Below are positions 14-10,218 of a DNA stretch of 22,426 nt, in pieces. The notes below the pieces were generated by a model, which worked only from the letters and a program-made list of their open reading frames with translations, searched no databases and was not told the DNA's origin. The stretch is from Candidatus Thorarchaeota archaeon (GTDB lineage: Archaea > Asgardarchaeota > Thorarchaeia > Thorarchaeales > Thorarchaeaceae), in NCBI GenBank assembly GCA_011364905.1, contig RDNZ01000045.1, forward strand, positions 1-22,426, written 5' to 3'. Numbering within the stretch: the stretch's first letter is position 1; each line of letters starts with the position of its first letter. The position numbers and the translations under genes were made by a program.

Positions 14-307
14 ATGAAACATATGCTTGAGTACAAAAATAGTCAATTTCACGAGTGCACTGGGACGCCGACAACTCCCATTACTCTGACAGTTGACGAA
101 TCCACGAAGAAGCTCATTCTCGTTGTTCCCAGCGGTGCGAGCATGATTGAGCGAAGAGCCGCAGAACGTAATGCTCGCGGTATTGAGAAAGTAGGTTTTC
201 AAACCGCGTCAAAAGGCCGAATAGGCAGAGGCTATGAGCTTGTCATAGAAGGTCACGGTGGAGGACTTCCTGATCGCCTCAGGCACTCTCCACGAGAGGT
301 ATACTAG
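14..307 (+). CDS. Small single-domain gelsolin/cofilin-superfamily protein (Asgard ProGel-like), putative actin-binding protein
   Basis: 97 aa. The pattern strand-strand (TLTVDESTKKLILVV), then SGASMIERRAAERNARGI (long helix), then strand (YELVIE) matches a gelsolin repeat. The C-terminus GGLPDRLRHSPREV resembles the gelsolin G1-G2 linker GGVASGFKHVVPNEV. Confidence 0.6.
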   Translation: MKHMLEYKNSQFHECTGTPTTPITLTVDESTKKLILVVPSGASMIERRAAERNARGIEKVGFQTASKGRIGRGYELVIEGHGGGLPDRLRHSPREVY

Positions 308-410
308 GGATTCATCATGACTGCAGGGCTCATGGGTACCGAGATTTGCTTCTCACTGAAAGAGCGTTGGCACCCGAATGTCCACAGTGCTAGTAGGAGA
401 GAGGTTCAAG

Positions 411-2081
411 ATGTCTGAAGAACGAGCGAAGAGATGGATTGAGGAGTCACAGAGGGATGTCATTAGACAGTCAGCTGGAAGTCAGCACCTTAAGAGAGCT
501 GCAGAGGCCGAAAGGTCGGGCAATATAGCCTCTGCTGAACAGGAATATGCTTTAGCTGCGGAAGCTTTTCTGAAGTCCGCAGGCGAATACCGTGGCGGAA
601 AGAGCTACAAAAAGGCCGCAATCAATATGTGTGCAGCTGGCGATGTTTACTCAGATTTAGGTGATTCGACCAAAGCGGTAGAGAGCTACACTGGAGCAGC
701 AGATGATCTTCTTAATGCCTCTACAGAACATCTCATGTGGGGCGAAGATGCTGAAACAAGCAAAGGCACAGCGCTTGCTATGACTGCATGCATGATGTAC
801 ATCATGGTTGGAAGAGAAGCTGACGGATTTTACAAGGCTCGTGGGTTTGTAGCTGAAAATGCTTCAAAGATACGCCTGCCTGCAACAGTTCGACTGAGTC
901 AGATTCCTCAGATGCTAGAGAGTTCAATTCAATCTGTAAATCTGGAGTCCTTTGCTTCAGCAGAAAACGCTGCAGTGACTGAGTTAAAAGCTGCGCTGGC
1001 AAGTGCCAATAGTCCGGAATTCTCCAAATATGTAGACAAGGGTCTCGATATGGTCCGAGAGCTACTTCGTGGAAAGCTCAAAGTACCAAAGCTATCATCA
1101 CAACTAATACTCCCAAATGATCTCACCTTCACAGAAGAGTTCCCTGTTCGGGTAATGATAAAGAACGCTGGCTCTGGGGAGGCCCTAGATCTCACGATTG
1201 AATGGCACATCCCAGAGGGCTTGAATCTAACATCTGGAGAGCGTAAAAAAGCAGTCAGCCTCTTACCACCAGGAGAAACACTGGATATTTCGGTTGTTTT
1301 GAAATCTGCACAGCCAATGGTTGGTGAGAAAGAATACTCCATCCTTGTTCGTGGTTCCTACAGTGACAAGCTAAAGACATCATATAGTTTGCAAGCTGGA
1401 CCCGGTTCACTGCTTCTACGTGACTATAAGGTCAGTCAGCAGCTTTCACGTGACGCAGATCTCACTGACGGTCGAGTAGGCCTACTAAAAGAGGCCATCG
1501 AAGCATCAGAACTCGAAGCTGAACCTTTGATACGTATTGTCAACAGTATGATTTCCACCATTAAGCAGAGTCGTATAGACATTAATGAGGGTGATTTGGA
1601 TCTTGCTAAGGCAAGAATTCGAGTCGTCAATGAAATGACTGACACAATCGACTCACTCCTTGGCGATGATGAGCTGTTGAGGAATCTCTCTGAGAAGAGA
1701 GAGGCAGAGAAAAAGGAATATGCGATGAAGACACTCACTCCTGCTTTTGATGAGGTTATTTCTTTCCTTGCCAGTCAGGAGAAGAAGATCGAAATGGAGT
1801 CACAAAATGCTCTTGCTGAATGGGATACTGAAGCCGCGAAAAAACAGAACCTGAAGGCAACATTGACTCGTATCAAAGACGTCGCTGGAACTCTCGCTAC
1901 CTCCGGCGCCGATACCTCGGTCCTTGAGGATGAAACCAACAAAGCTCTCAGTAATTCCCTTCTCGTTATTGGAGAACGTCCTTCCTCTCCGGAGAAAGTG
2001 GAGATAGCATTAGTTATGGCGCGTTCAATACGAAATGAAATCACCCAAATGCTTGAATCAAGAAAGAATGAACTAACATAG
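411..2081 (+). CDS. Multidomain protein: N-terminal SNAP/TPR-like solenoid, central Ig-like (CARDB/DUF11-like) domain, C-terminal helical/coiled-coil region
   Basis: ORF track gives 378..2081. ATG at 411 is preferred because AGGAGAGAGG lies just upstream. Ala-rich helical repeats (AEQEYALAAEAFLKSA, KKAAINMCAAGDVY, AVESYTGAADDL) are followed by the Ig-like signature FPVRVMIKNAGSGEALDLTIEWHIPEGL...LLPPGETLDISVVL. No signal peptide. Confidence 0.65.
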   Translation: MSEERAKRWIEESQRDVIRQSAGSQHLKRAAEAERSGNIASAEQEYALAAEAFLKSAGEYRGGKSYKKAAINMCAAGDVYSDLGDSTKAVESYTGAADDLLNASTEHLMWGEDAETSKGTALAMTACMMYIMVGREADGFYKARGFVAENASKIRLPATVRLSQIPQMLESSIQSVNLESFASAENAAVTELKAALASANSPEFSKYVDKGLDMVRELLRGKLKVPKLSSQLILPNDLTFTEEFPVRVMIKNAGSGEALDLTIEWHIPEGLNLTSGERKKAVSLLPPGETLDISVVLKSAQPMVGEKEYSILVRGSYSDKLKTSYSLQAGPGSLLLRDYKVSQQLSRDADLTDGRVGLLKEAIEASELEAEPLIRIVNSMISTIKQSRIDINEGDLDLAKARIRVVNEMTDTIDSLLGDDELLRNLSEKREAEKKEYAMKTLTPAFDEVISFLASQEKKIEMESQNALAEWDTEAAKKQNLKATLTRIKDVAGTLATSGADTSVLEDETNKALSNSLLVIGERPSSPEKVEIALVMARSIRNEITQMLESRKNELT

Positions 2082-5220: not shown

Positions 5221-6888
5221 TTATTTCGCCAACTCCAATCCGCACTTCTGACAGAATTGCGAGCCTGCCTCGACCACTGCTCCACACTTGGGACATTTTC
5301 CTGAATATCTACTCCAAAGAACAAGTAGTCTCTCTATATCATCTCGTTGCAGAAGTCTTCTCCGTAGCAGTTCTTCCAATCCCTCAACCAATAGCTGCTC
5401 CGCTTCAGGAGCTAGGAGCATATTCCCATTGACGCACGCCTTGTCAAATGCATCTTTGAATGACTTATCATTCTTCAACCAGTCGTCTATAGTAGCATTA
5501 ATCGCAACATCGAACTCATTGCTTAGGGAGCTCCCCTTTCCCATTGTCAGAAGATTATCATCAGGTAAGAAACAAGGAGTGAGTATTCTCTGGGTCTGAT
5601 CGTCATATTTGGCTACAAAAGTGTGCACATCGATGAGTGTCAACGGGGCTAGATCACCGATTGAATTGTTATCTAGTGTCCAATTCATCAAATTCAGAAA
5701 CTCTTGCTGAAGAGTCATGACCCTGTTTTCGATAGACTGGTCGGCTTTGGCAATTGCGCTGTTCACTTGCGTCTTGAGATCATCCAACTCGGCCGACTTC
5801 TGCTGCATTTCGTTTCTTGCTTCATCGATCCTTTTCTGACGTTCTTGGATTTCTGCTTGCAATAGCGACTCTGCTTTCATCTTGTTTGATTCGTAGTTTG
5901 ATTGGGCCTCGGCGATACGTTTCTGTAAGTCCGCTTTCTTCGTGTCCATCATATCAATGGGCTGCTGGCTATTCGCTACAGTCGATTTCAAAGAGTCTAT
6001 GAGACTGCTGTAAACCGAGATTGCACCTTCGGTGTCTGCTTCTTTCATACCAATCTGAGTTCTGGCTTTTCTTATTTCATCCACAATGCCACCAAAGAAC
6101 TGCTCAAGATCATTTACAGCTCTTGAAAAATCTGCAGTCATTGCACGCAGGTTCATTTTGTGTTTCTCACGCAACTCATAGAGCTTGTTATCTTTGTCCT
6201 CTGTGAGCTTGGCAATCTCCTGTTTTGTTCGCTCCTCCATCATTCTAACTCTTTCGTTCCCTCTTTCTTTTTCTAAGTTGGTGACATTATCAAGAATTGT
6301 GGTTTGAGCTCCAAAGTTTTCTCTGATTAATTTCTGCAGAGTTTCAGCTGACTCAATTCTCATCTTTGCTGAATCAGATACCTTCCTGAATTCCTCAGAT
6401 CTATTGAGCGCAGCGGCTGAGTCTGAAGCAATATCAATTCTATTTGGCCTTGCATTGGGATCGGAAACTGTAACATACCTTCCGACTACATTAAGAAGTG
6501 AAGGCTCAACTAAGTTGGCCACATCTGCCGTATGTGTGTCAACGTTCTCAATAAGCGGATGTATCTTTGAAACTACCTTTGGGATATCAGCCGCTTGGGA
6601 TAAGTCTGAGCTTACGATTCTCTTTACTTCACTTGCACCCTTCATCTCAGTGAAATGAAATTCCTTTCTCCTGCTGCTCGTTGCAGTCAAAACGATTGAT
6701 TTAGTGGGCGATGTCTGAACAATCCAAAACGGAAAAGATACACTACTCAGACTAACGATCCTCGAGCTTTTCCCCTTCTGTGATTCAGCAGATGCAAGTG
6801 CTGCAGCAATGCAAATGCTCTCAGGTTCTGCTTGAATTCTTGTGCCATCTTTCTTGAACAAGTAGTTTAGATTTAAGTTTCTTACCAC
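5221..6888 (-). CDS. Coiled-coil protein with N- and C-terminal globular parts and a C-terminal zinc ribbon
   Basis: 555 aa with a GTG start and upstream GGTGG. Heptad-rich E/K/Q/L/M stretch at about aa 160-400. C-terminal CPKCGAVVEAGSQFCQKCG. No Walker A motif. Confidence 0.75.
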   Translation of the reverse strand: MVRNLNLNYLFKKDGTRIQAEPESICIAAALASAESQKGKSSRIVSLSSVSFPFWIVQTSPTKSIVLTATSSRRKEFHFTEMKGASEVKRIVSSDLSQAADIPKVVSKIHPLIENVDTHTADVANLVEPSLLNVVGRYVTVSDPNARPNRIDIASDSAAALNRSEEFRKVSDSAKMRIESAETLQKLIRENFGAQTTILDNVTNLEKERGNERVRMMEERTKQEIAKLTEDKDNKLYELREKHKMNLRAMTADFSRAVNDLEQFFGGIVDEIRKARTQIGMKEADTEGAISVYSSLIDSLKSTVANSQQPIDMMDTKKADLQKRIAEAQSNYESNKMKAESLLQAEIQERQKRIDEARNEMQQKSAELDDLKTQVNSAIAKADQSIENRVMTLQQEFLNLMNWTLDNNSIGDLAPLTLIDVHTFVAKYDDQTQRILTPCFLPDDNLLTMGKGSSLSNEFDVAINATIDDWLKNDKSFKDAFDKACVNGNMLLAPEAEQLLVEGLEELLRRRLLQRDDIERLLVLWSRYSGKCPKCGAVVEAGSQFCQKCGLELAK

Positions 6889-7074
6889 GGCGAAGCCACC
6901 TTGAAAGAAGTTGACGACTCAGTACCAGTTATGCCTTTTTAGCACTCGTTATGTTTCTCTCATATTGCCATTTAGAGTTTCATTGTATTAAACCCACTAA
7001 CACTCAATGGCTCCAGAGCTATCCAACTGAAGAATTTGAATCTCATAACGAGCTGTTTTGAAAAACCATCACAC

Positions 7075-7482
7075 TCATGTGCTATCGCGTCTAATCAACG
7101 TAAAAGTAGTTGCCTCATCGATTGATAGCTTCTCTTCTGTTAGAAGTTCTCTGAGAATCTCTAGGTATTGATTGTTCAGTCTGAATCCGTCTCCCTCTAC
7201 GACCCTTAATGTTGCTCTATGATTCCACTCAGCATCTGGATCATCTACGGAATGGAGGGTCACAACATAATTCTCTCCTGCTCTCCCCATCATCAGTCTT
7301 ATAGTACTATAAGTGAGACCTTTCATCTCACTGCCAATAGAACGCTGAGCATAGATTTGAATTGCAGACATGAATGAACCAAACAGCTCTTGATTGACCT
7401 TTATGTTTTCAAGGCCAACTGACGCTTGCCGAATACCTGCTTCATCAAATACAATTATGCCCTTCAAGATGGCAACAACCAC
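7075..7482 (-). CDS. Longin-like / roadblock-related (profilin-like fold) small protein
   Basis: The order beta-beta (ILKGIIVFDEAGIRQAS), helix (QELFGSFMSAIQIYAQR), beta-beta-beta (MKGLTY, IRLMMG, YVVTL), helix is the longin topology. The LxGxFxSAI motif is common in Asgard longin-like proteins. Confidence 0.65.
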   Translation of the reverse strand: MVVAILKGIIVFDEAGIRQASVGLENIKVNQELFGSFMSAIQIYAQRSIGSEMKGLTYSTIRLMMGRAGENYVVTLHSVDDPDAEWNHRATLRVVEGDGFRLNNQYLEILRELLTEEKLSIDEATTFTLIRRDST

Positions 7483-7569
7483 ATTGTACTCTCGTACATT
7501 CTTTTATGAAAATCTGTATTATGGATAGCTCGTATAGACAGATGTGACCCAGGTTGACCATAAGACAGG

Positions 7570-7959
7570 TCACTGACCAAGAAGATCTCCGACTTCCTTT
7601 GCATATTTTCTCATTTGAGTAACTGCAAGACCCATGGATGTCAGATCCTTTGCCGCTCCCATCAGCAGAAACTCACCTGCATGAGAAAGAACCACAAACC
7701 CATCCTGTCCACGAACCACAACTTCGTAGAGTTCGCTCAGATCAAGTTTACTTGCTGCCATCTCTCCAGTCATTAAGAGAGCAGCACTCACCGCAGCCAT
7801 GAGGTCTGGGTCTGCTTCAGAGTCTTCCGTAGCAAAATAGGCGAGCTTGACTCCCTGTTTGCTTACCACAGCTATTGCATCAAGGTCCGCATAGTTAGTC
7901 AGACCCATCAATAGTTCAACAAGTTCCTTTTCCTTTGCAGGATCAAGATGAGATGACAT
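7570..7959 (-). CDS. Roadblock/LC7 (MglB/LAMTOR-like) domain protein
   Basis: AIAVVSKQGVKLA, DLMAAVSAALLMTGEMAASKL, EVVVRGQDGFVVL and MGLAVTQMRKYAKEV. GAGGT ribosome-binding site upstream. Confidence 0.9.
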   Translation of the reverse strand: MSSHLDPAKEKELVELLMGLTNYADLDAIAVVSKQGVKLAYFATEDSEADPDLMAAVSAALLMTGEMAASKLDLSELYEVVVRGQDGFVVLSHAGEFLLMGAAKDLTSMGLAVTQMRKYAKEVGDLLGQ

Positions 7960-7988
7960 TTCGTTTACCTCTTTTCATGCGAAATTGA

Positions 7989-8915
7989 TTATTTAGCTAC
8001 TAGCTTCTTGCCTTTTGTTTTGCCCTTCTTCTTTGCATCTGCGTCTGGTTCTTCTTCCAGCTCAGATCTGAAGAAGCTGATGAGGTCATCCAAGCGTTCC
8101 TTCATCTCAGCTTTGATTGGGCTTAAGATTGCATCCGGAGTTCCTTTGAGTAGCTCTATTCCTAGAACCCTGCCGTCTTTTACAATGACACGCGGAATGA
8201 ATCCCTCAGCCATGAATGTTCCCTCTGGTGGATCCTTCACTTTCTCAAATTTCCGCTCGACCTTCTCCTGGCCAAACACTGCTATCTTGTGCTCTGCAAC
8301 AGTGAAAAGCTCATTATAGACAATCAATAACTCCCTCTCATATCCCTCTGGCGGCTCAACGGTTTCAAGGTCTTTGATCATTGCTTGGATTTCCGCAGAG
8401 AGAGCTTGAGAGGATGAAGATGCGGATTGCGGTCTTGGAGAGGGTGCAGTCGTGGTTGACCTAGATGTAGGTTGTGTTGGTGGCCTAGGCGATGGAGCTG
8501 CAGATGTTGCTGTTTCAGGAGTAGAATCCACAGGTCTAGGCTTCGGTGGAGGCGATGAAGATGTTTCTGCTTTTGCTGTTGGTGGTTTCGGAGGCGGAGC
8601 TTTTTCACCTGGTTTTAGAATTCTCTCTGCCGCAGTTGAACCATCCAAAGCAGTGAAGAATGTGGGTGGCTCCTCGCCTTCGTCGAGGGGGCGTACCTTG
8701 AAGTGAAAACCGTACTCAGTTCTCAGATTAGTTGCAACTCGTGCTCCAATAAACTTCCTTCTGATACCTGCTTGTGTGCCCTTCCATAGGTAGATGCTCT
8801 TTGTTTCATCATCAACGACACAAACTACCATTGTAGATTCAAGGTCATCTTTGCCTATCTCGACCTCATTCAAGGTTCCATCTTCCAAAACCTCGTAGCC
8901 TAGGACCATGATCAA
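7989..8915 (-). CDS. Gelsolin/villin-repeat domain protein with Pro/Ser/Thr-rich linker, uncharacterised C-terminal domain and Lys-rich tail
   Basis: aa 1-91 form a canonical gelsolin repeat: LESTMVVCVVDDETKSIYLWKG...RKFIGARVATNL...LDEGEEPPTFFTAL. The linker APPPKPPT...SSSPPPKPRP follows, and the tail is KKKGKTKGKKLVAK. The start may be 8909. Confidence 0.85.
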   Translation of the reverse strand: MIMVLGYEVLEDGTLNEVEIGKDDLESTMVVCVVDDETKSIYLWKGTQAGIRRKFIGARVATNLRTEYGFHFKVRPLDEGEEPPTFFTALDGSTAAERILKPGEKAPPPKPPTAKAETSSSPPPKPRPVDSTPETATSAAPSPRPPTQPTSRSTTTAPSPRPQSASSSSQALSAEIQAMIKDLETVEPPEGYERELLIVYNELFTVAEHKIAVFGQEKVERKFEKVKDPPEGTFMAEGFIPRVIVKDGRVLGIELLKGTPDAILSPIKAEMKERLDDLISFFRSELEEEPDADAKKKGKTKGKKLVAK

Positions 8916-9093
8916 TCACAACGCTGCTCATTAGATTTGCACTGCTAGGAATATCGGATATCTAGCCAGCGTGGTTATTGCCTTTTTGTGGTATATGATT
9001 GTTATTGTGTTAAATATGCCGCCAGATTCCTGCCTCAACGGGTGTCAAGAAGGCTTATGAGTGAGGCAACCATAGGATTTGTGGTCGTTTGAG

Positions 9094-10218
9094 ATGGAAG
9101 AAACACAGAAGTATGTAAGCCCATACAAAAAGTTGTTTGATGAAACCAAGGACCTTAGTTTTGCAAAACTCCTTCTGGGTCTTGCTGTGTCAACATTGAT
9201 AATGCTCGGCTCAACTTGGGGCCTTCTTTCTTTATTGAATTTTTCAGGCGTTTTCAGCTTTGAGCCCTCAAAGTTTGTTTCATATACAACCTATATGCTG
9301 GAGGCTTCAGTTGGCTCTATTATTTTGGCACTTATTTTGTGCGGGATTCTGATCAAATGGCCACGAACCGTCAGCTTCTCACTACGATTACATAGAAGAG
9401 TGAAACACCATGCAGGAGATTATTTCATGTCTCCAGAGCCGGAGGATGAGAAACTTGGAGATGCCATTCGGAGATCCCTTTATGGATCAATACTCATTGT
9501 AGGCATAGCTTTGACAATCCTAGGACTGGACATGATACACAATACAACTGGCGGCGAGTTAATCTTTCTTGGCACAGTCCTGATGATAGTGAGCATTGTC
9601 ATTCTTCCAATTACTGTTATGTTATTCTATTTTGGTCCGTGGTTAATGAAGGAAGCCGGCTTGTTTCATCTTGATACAAAAGACAGGTCTCTAAGCAATG
9701 TTGGAGATGATGTTGAAGACATTCTAGAATTCTTTGCTGGAGTGGACATCGTTCTTGTATGGTTTGAGCTAACGTTAAATGTTGGTCAAGATGCGCTTTG
9801 GATTCCCATATTCATTATTTTAGTGGCACTTGGACCACTTTTCTCAATCATTCTAAACTTCACAATAATTTTCGTCTTTGTCAAGAAGAGAGCAACTCTC
9901 GCAATGATGCGTTATCTATCCGAGCGATATAACATACCCGATATGTTGACCTCACCTGGCTACATCAGAAGCCAAGTCATGACACTTGTTGAAAGAGAGG
10001 TATTCATGGTGGGTCCGGCGACGCCTCCTGAATCAATGGCACCTGTGGAGGAGGAGGTTTCAAAGGAAGCATCCAATGAGGAATCTCTACCCGAATCAGA
10101 ACCAGTGATGGAGCCACCTCCGGAACCCAAACGCGATCACATTCCTCCTCCACCAGGTGATCATGTTCCACCACCTCCTGGAGACAATAGTGAGTCAATC
10201 GCTGAGGATGATGGTTGA
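9094..10218 (+). CDS. Polytopic membrane protein (about 6 TM) with acidic, proline-rich C-terminal tail; function unknown
   Basis: ORF track starts at TTG 9079, and ATG 9094 is plausible. Several hydrophobic segments of about 20 aa. The tail is EPPPEPKRDHIPPPPGDHVPPPPGDNSESIAEDDG. Confidence 0.7.
   Translation: MEETQKYVSPYKKLFDETKDLSFAKLLLGLAVSTLIMLGSTWGLLSLLNFSGVFSFEPSKFVSYTTYMLEASVGSIILALILCGILIKWPRTVSFSLRLHRRVKHHAGDYFMSPEPEDEKLGDAIRRSLYGSILIVGIALTILGLDMIHNTTGGELIFLGTVLMIVSIVILPITVMLFYFGPWLMKEAGLFHLDTKDRSLSNVGDDVEDILEFFAGVDIVLVWFELTLNVGQDALWIPIFIILVALGPLFSIILNFTIIFVFVKKRATLAMMRYLSERYNIPDMLTSPGYIRSQVMTLVEREVFMVGPATPPESMAPVEEEVSKEASNEESLPESEPVMEPPPEPKRDHIPPPPGDHVPPPPGDNSESIAEDDG
10135..10185 (+). 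repeat. Two tandem 24-nt units encoding DH(I/V)PPPPG
   Basis: gatcacattcctcctccaccaggt / gatcatgttccaccacctcctgga, then gac. Codons have diverged while the peptide is conserved. Confidence 0.85.

Follow-up and report, generated by a model that had tools for sequence, protein, structure and literature searches.

On contig RDNZ01000045.1 of a Candidatus Thorarchaeota assembly (GCA_011364905.1), a gelsolin gene of the 1DGelX type is followed on the same strand by a gene for a roadblock/LC7 protein, and it is this gene pair that we consider here. The window, by which we mean the whole 22,426-nucleotide (nt) stretch of DNA that was analyzed, carries four minus-strand genes and one divergent plus-strand gene within 5221-10218. 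An earlier note on this DNA had placed five open reading frames in that interval, four of them co-oriented and one divergent, and all five sit where it put them. The note took them together as a module coupling small-GTPase signalling to actin remodelling at the membrane, a reading that we weigh below. The gelsolin gene, the parts of its product (lengths in amino acids, aa) and the roadblock gene are laid out as follows.

7989..8915, minus strand: gelsolin gene of the 1DGelX type, 308 aa; listed with a TTG start at 8915, though the ATG at 8909 is likely the true one (MVLGYE...)
8643..8909, minus strand: gelsolin-homology domain, residues 3-91
8412..8636, minus strand: Pro/Ser/Thr-rich linker, residues 94-168 (~75), predicted disordered (predicted local distance difference test, pLDDT, 43-68)
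8052..8411, minus strand: domain X, residues 169-288; a helix, five strands and a long helix in the predicted structure
7992..8051, minus strand: C-terminal tail, acidic and then polybasic, ending KKLVAK
7960..7988, minus strand: gelsolin-roadblock spacer, 29 nt, read directly from the sequence
7570..7959, minus strand: roadblock/LC7 gene, 129 aa (Pfam PF03259), the conserved putative partner gene of 1DGelX

The gelsolin-homology domain matches the Thorarchaeota ProGel (7c2f) in a phmmer search (E 3e-12), and the window protein has the gelsolin/cofilin core fold. Both the structure model and the orthologue alignment give a single gelsolin-homology domain, then a linker, then domain X, which is the architecture of 1DGelX. 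The linker differs between orthologues in both length and sequence, the KLVAK terminus is retained throughout Thorarchaeota, and Thorarchaeota SMTZ1-45, which belongs to the same genus, has an orthologue with 77% identity to the window protein. The same architecture is seen in 1DGelX itself (Thor_GelX), a protein of Thorarchaeota SMTZ1-83 that severs and nucleates actin and does not need calcium to do so (Akil et al. 2020, PMC7444086); this activity is that of the SMTZ1-83 protein, to which the window protein is likened by architecture. B35_GelX of Ca. Lokiarchaeum ossiferum, a GelX-type protein (bioRxiv 10.1101/2025.11.30.690169), likewise has a single gelsolin domain, a linker and domain X.

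Domain X was given a coiled-coil model in one of these papers (PMC7444086) and was called disordered in the other (bioRxiv 10.1101/2025.11.30.690169), whereas here it is predicted with confidence to adopt an alpha-beta5-alpha fold, with pLDDT values of 75-95 per 10-residue block, mostly >87. Its conserved motifs are PPEGYxRE, PPEGxF, PR and G..E.LK, and the orthologue alignment shows four invariant residues, E195, G232, R242 and E254, inside two PPEG-containing hairpin units. An exhaustive profile search of 1.84 billion cluster representatives returned just 240 proteins, nearly all of them with an N-terminal gelsolin domain. Distribution was counted by profile searches over 400 Asgard genomes, and domain X is present in 362 of these (80/85 genera). 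The 31 members scanned had no consistent Pfam match, the profile had zero matches among PDB sequences, and structure searches of the PDB and the Atlas with the whole gelsolin model gave match lists filled by gelsolin and ADF-H proteins. As modelled, domain X is a conserved folded domain with no assigned family, which in these searches came only from Asgard genomes. The idea that it is a cryptic roadblock or longin domain was considered and rejected, hhalign against both profiles being negative. Among GelX relatives, P0048 and P0101 (~435-442 aa) have a gelsolin domain followed by domain X twice in tandem, and P0099 has a coiled coil after domain X.

The product of the next gene scores 41.4 bits against Robl_LC7 (PF03259, cut-off 23) over residues 15-100. 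The gelsolin and roadblock domain calls of the earlier note hold, as does its placing of the roadblock gene 29 nt past the gelsolin stop. That spacer has a Shine-Dalgarno-like GAGGT at 7967-7971, separated by 7 nt from the roadblock ATG, and an oligo-T run was looked for in the 29 nt and none is present. Because the two genes are so close, and because the spacer has a ribosome-binding motif and lacks a terminator signal, the two are probably transcribed together.

The putative partner gene is, as its profile scores indicate, one specific roadblock orthologue and not any roadblock gene. The orthologue profile was found in 366/400 Asgard genomes at the threshold used for it (E 1e-15 or better), and the orthologue can be told from its paralogues; in one genome (G221) its score is 165 bits, and that of the next roadblock paralogue is 101. 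Identity to the window protein is 78-95% across the Thorarchaeota genera of its own family and 56% in a second family, with the SMTZ1-45 orthologue at 95%. Across the other 15 genera of the family the roadblock protein is conserved at 78-91%, domain X at 73-87% and the product of a neighbouring aminotransferase gene at 68-83%; the roadblock protein and domain X are also better conserved than the products of the neighbouring ATP-binding cassette (ABC) genes.

We then consider how far the two genes travel together. The class of the window comprises 87 genomes in 17 genera, with record titles reading Candidatus Thorarchaeota (hereafter Thor), and the genus of the window comprises 27 species. For the comparison of gene order, 31 Thor loci covering all 17 genera were fetched and 13 window genes were mapped onto each; 20 Asgard loci from outside the class were fetched as well, and an additional check of named records included 66 of Thor type. 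Gelsolin followed by roadblock, adjacent and co-directional, was seen in all 31 Thor loci and in 66/66 of the named records. Six other Asgard families contribute 25 genomes in which the pair is adjacent, among them two records titled Odinarchaeota. Labels of the form f3 denote Asgard families of the genome set, and adjacency was likewise found in two single-contig f21 genomes (4.4 and 6.0 Mb) and in one f14 genome. Of the 20 non-Thor loci, 7 have the roadblock orthologue immediately after gelsolin on the same strand and 1 has it convergent, and a weaker match, a 300-aa roadblock-domain protein, lies <=1 kb away in 2. Among the matches listed in both profile searches, 20/20 non-Thor genomes have the two genes side by side. 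The spacer between them ranges from 2 to 200 nt across lineages. None of the 20 fetched non-Thor loci has an ABC-transporter, aminotransferase or TPR/Ig gene in the Thor position, and the orthologues keep their same-strand adjacency across classes despite these changed flanks.

The absences of the two genes also coincide. Both are missing from families f24-f27 (14 genomes), and within Thorarchaeota the same 14 incomplete assemblies lack both the gelsolin and the roadblock gene. Each genome holds many roadblock candidates, and because in dozens of genomes the best-scoring of them is the gene immediately downstream of the gelsolin gene, the adjacency is, on this comparison, far beyond chance. 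To judge from its distribution, the two-gene unit is older than the split of several Asgard classes.

Near the pair outside Thorarchaeota we also observed a family of proteins of mostly 720-810 aa (486 aa in L075). Its genes lie near GelX in five non-Thor loci, and after the pair in four (L083:1896-4193, L085:5820-8255, L086:6784-9060, L089:6080-8242 and L075:8408-9865 for the family as a whole). In all three members scanned a VWA domain forms the C-terminal part, and one of the three also matches CDC48_N weakly.

The three other genes of the interval, with one putative signal, are the following.

7075..7482, minus strand: stand-alone longin-fold gene, 135 aa, a genus-specific insertion; likely start TTG at 7467 (MKGIIV...)
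7061..7065, minus strand: T5 run, 10 nt past the longin stop codon, a putative archaeal terminator by its likeness to one
5221..6888, minus strand: gene for a 555-aa coiled-coil protein whose C-terminal part carries a zinc ribbon (Pfam Zn_Ribbon_1, residues 531-550), a variable neighbour
9079..10218, plus strand: gene for a divergent polytopic membrane protein, 379 aa, with about six hydrophobic segments

The AlphaFold2 model of the 7075-7482 product has the longin topology, b-b-a-b-b-b-a-a. All the top structural matches to this model are longin or roadblock proteins, and MglB is among its structural neighbours; the fold on which the earlier note had staked its reading of this gene is borne out. 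The protein has no Pfam match and no PDB sequence match. Aligned by hhalign, its profile and the roadblock profile match with an E of 8e-5, MAPKK1_Int matches 5/22 relatives of the gene, weakly (best 9e-4), and Fuz_longin_1 occurs in 22% of the members of its Atlas neighbour cluster. A position between roadblock and aminotransferase is confined to the genus of the window, where the gene has it in 11/11 fetched loci, and the longin-family profile is found in 22/66 named Thor records. In other genera the nearest relatives (37-50% identity) are at other loci, beside cysS, beside unknown genes or in GTPase triads. More distant relatives occur in these triads, which consist of a Ras-family GTPase gene (Pfam Ras, E ~1e-41), a longin gene and a gene for a ~470-aa protein with no Pfam match. 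We found the triads in three other Thor genera (L047-L050) and twice in the genome of the window itself (C14:46861-48794 and C42:19070-21348; L171 and L172). Because the longin gene of the window has an 87-nt upstream spacer with a TATA-like CATAAAAG box, and the T5 run after its stop codon, the sequence suggests that it has a transcript of its own. The gene may be a stray paralogue of the longin subunit of the triads that was inserted, in this genus, downstream of the pair and probably has a promoter of its own.

The coiled-coil and zinc-ribbon assignment of the earlier note is supported by the Pfam match and by long charged and hydrophobic stretches free of proline and glycine at residues ~150-410; searches of PDB and NCBIfam gave no informative match. 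The gene adjoins in 4/11 loci of the genus of the window. Its family is present in 16/17 Thor genera, where copies elsewhere lie on other contigs or far from the pair. Copies in genus g12 are 70-74% identical to that of the window, many copies from its own genus are just 46-54% identical (g12 and other copies are G059:C38, G058:C1:1201408 and G057:C128), and there is a second paralogue group at ~32% identity. Because the g12 copies are closer to that of the window than many from its own genus, and because this second group exists, the history of the family points to paralogy or gene transfer. The membrane protein is also as the earlier note described it, polytopic and with a PPPPG tail. It ends in HIPPPPGDHVPPPPGD, an acidic tail with two IPPPPG/VPPPPG units, and the IPPPPG motif is limited to the five closest species. 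Its gene is at the window position in 9/17 Thor genera and not in the other 8, and it is absent from that position in all other classes. This pattern marks both the coiled-coil gene and the membrane gene as variable neighbours and putative later additions.

The wider Thor locus has a class-wide order of three ABC-transporter genes, sometimes the membrane gene, then gelsolin, roadblock, the aminotransferase and a TPR/Ig-like protein. At the other edge of the window a 97-aa gene (14-307, plus strand) lies directly upstream of the 567-aa TPR/Ig-like gene (378-2081, plus strand), and 15 of the fetched Thor loci keep both side by side (65-92% identity); a reading of the 97-aa gene as a gelsolin was dropped, with neither Pfam nor PDB sequence support. 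Between 10195 and 15043 there is an ABC transporter (binding protein, permease and ATPase) followed by a divergent gene for a ThiN-domain protein with a weak helix-turn-helix match, likely a locus for thiamine uptake and regulation. This thiamine-type locus is syntenic with the gelsolin pair class-wide, though functionally unrelated to it. As the earlier note had it, no actin or Ras-family GTPase gene is on the contig. Elsewhere in the genome, on other contigs, lie 27 Ras-family matches, and the genome has 17 strong Ras-like GTPases.

We propose that 1DGelX and a dedicated roadblock protein are encoded by a conserved two-gene unit whose products are partners, and that the other three genes are later additions, a reading to which we give a probability of about one half. 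The roadblock protein, probably as a dimer, would be the partner of 1DGelX and would serve as an adaptor or regulator governing the place or the time of actin cutting by 1DGelX, and the conserved charged face of domain X would be the most likely docking site for it. It is somewhat unlikely, but the chief competing account, that the adjacency reflects descent only, with two old and near-universal Asgard genes kept side by side through inertia or a common transcript and with no joint action of their products. Several observations weigh against partnership and favor this account. Six families (those of records titled Jordarchaeia and Freyarchaeota, and f3, f4, f17 and f30) have the pair split while retaining both genes, and the detached roadblock orthologue sits among housekeeping genes, SRP54, aIF5A, PAC2 and Nob1-like genes. 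(In f3 and f4 it is divergent from SRP54 and near Nob1-like genes, at L175:3999-5986 and L177:2533-4454; aIF5A is near it in f4 and f17, and PAC2 in f3 and f17.) No fusion of a roadblock domain with domain X or the gelsolin domain was found among the 150 best domain-X proteins, and none of a longin domain with either. In addition, the unrelated housekeeping gene for Nnr (bifunctional NAD(P)HX repair enzyme, YjeF_N + Carb_kinase) lies directly upstream of GelX in 8/20 non-Thor loci (L072, L073, L083 and L086-L090), which suggests an ancestral order Nnr-GelX-roadblock from which Nnr may have been lost in Thorarchaeota. Nnr has thus also long been adjacent, and old adjacency alone is therefore no proof of shared function. 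Descent alone fits less well with the fate of the ~8 Thor genes that flank gelsolin, of which roadblock alone remains its neighbour in other classes, with the same strand and short spacers that recur in at least eight families, or with the matching presence and absence of the two genes.

Larger assemblies are less probable. That 1DGelX and roadblock form an ancestral Asgard actin-regulating complex, with the roadblock dimer on domain X and severing or nucleation answering to a small GTPase encoded elsewhere, is improbable as a whole. We hold it distinctly improbable that a genus-level elaboration added the longin protein, so that roadblock and longin would form a mixed platform, comparable to Ragulator or Mon1-Ccz1, which serves a GTPase encoded elsewhere and controls 1DGelX. 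The longin gene is indeed fixed beside roadblock in all testable loci of its 27-species genus, its product shares a fold with the longin subunits of adaptor complexes and of GTPase exchange factors, it has paralogues in triads with a Ras-like GTPase, and Ras-family matches are plentiful in the genome at 27. However, genus-level synteny says nothing on function, because the unrelated ABC-transporter and aminotransferase genes are equally syntenic there; the 87-nt spacer with its TATA-like box suggests a separate longin transcript, and the closest longin relatives in other genera stand beside cysS or unknown genes. The five genes as one conserved pre-eukaryotic module, as the earlier note proposed, we consider very improbable, although all five of its domain assignments are correct and the four co-oriented genes lie close together. 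The five-gene order is kept only inside part of one genus, the coiled-coil family lies elsewhere in most genomes, the membrane gene is away from its position in 8/17 Thor genera and in the other classes, the PPPPG tail belongs to five species only, and in the lineages examined the pair has no linked GTPase gene. Of the module, the adjacency of gelsolin and roadblock stands, and the longin, coiled-coil and membrane genes fall away as conserved members. The picture of a five-gene path from GTPase to actin to membrane is, so far as gene order can tell, a local accident, and the coupling to the membrane and to small GTPases is speculative, the latter being an extrapolation from what roadblock-fold proteins usually do.

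In Myxococcus, MglA and MglB are a Ras-like GTPase and its roadblock-fold GTPase-activating protein, and they act on motility and MreB. As in that system, a roadblock-fold protein is linked in the genome to a regulator of a cytoskeleton of the actin family. The MglB gene lies with that of its GTPase, whereas the pair of the window has no adjacent Ras-like GTPase gene in the loci examined. Such a gene was found neither beside the pair in the lineages examined nor beside the detached roadblock orthologues examined, and the MglB-type arrangement of roadblock beside GTPase was not seen at the examined loci. A predicted Asgard operon combines a roadblock-superfamily protein (LAMTOR1-like/longin), a Rab-like GTPase and a DENN-like protein (Liu et al., bioRxiv 10.1101/2020.10.19.343400). 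The triads of Ras-family GTPase, longin and ~470-aa protein resemble it, the ~470-aa protein being a candidate DENN-like protein by its place in the arrangement, with no Pfam match, while the longin copy of the window has neither a GTPase gene nor a ~470-aa gene beside it. Several Asgard roadblock structures have been solved, namely 7f8m from Thor SMTZ1-45 and 9jue, 9jq8 and 7yh1 from MK-D1 (Tran et al. 2024, PMC10933270). These belong to the same Pfam family and fold class and are distant paralogues, at 36-42 bits against the window protein; unlike them, the gelsolin-linked orthologue has no solved structure. The GelX family is already known from Thor- and Lokiarchaeia. Neither of the published GelX papers (PMC7444086; bioRxiv 10.1101/2025.11.30.690169) mentions a downstream roadblock gene or an operon, and our full-text literature searches for gelsolin with roadblock in Asgard archaea found no description of the pair, so that the conserved 1DGelX-roadblock pair was not found described in print.

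Asgard archaea crawl and reshape themselves by means of an actin cytoskeleton, and the proteins co-purifying with Asgard actin include gelsolins (PMC13716822). The conserved neighbouring roadblock gene names one concrete candidate partner of GelX, testable with proteins that laboratories already express. If a GTPase-responsive complex of 1DGelX and roadblock does exist, it would be an archaeal forerunner of the GTPase control of the eukaryotic actin cytoskeleton.

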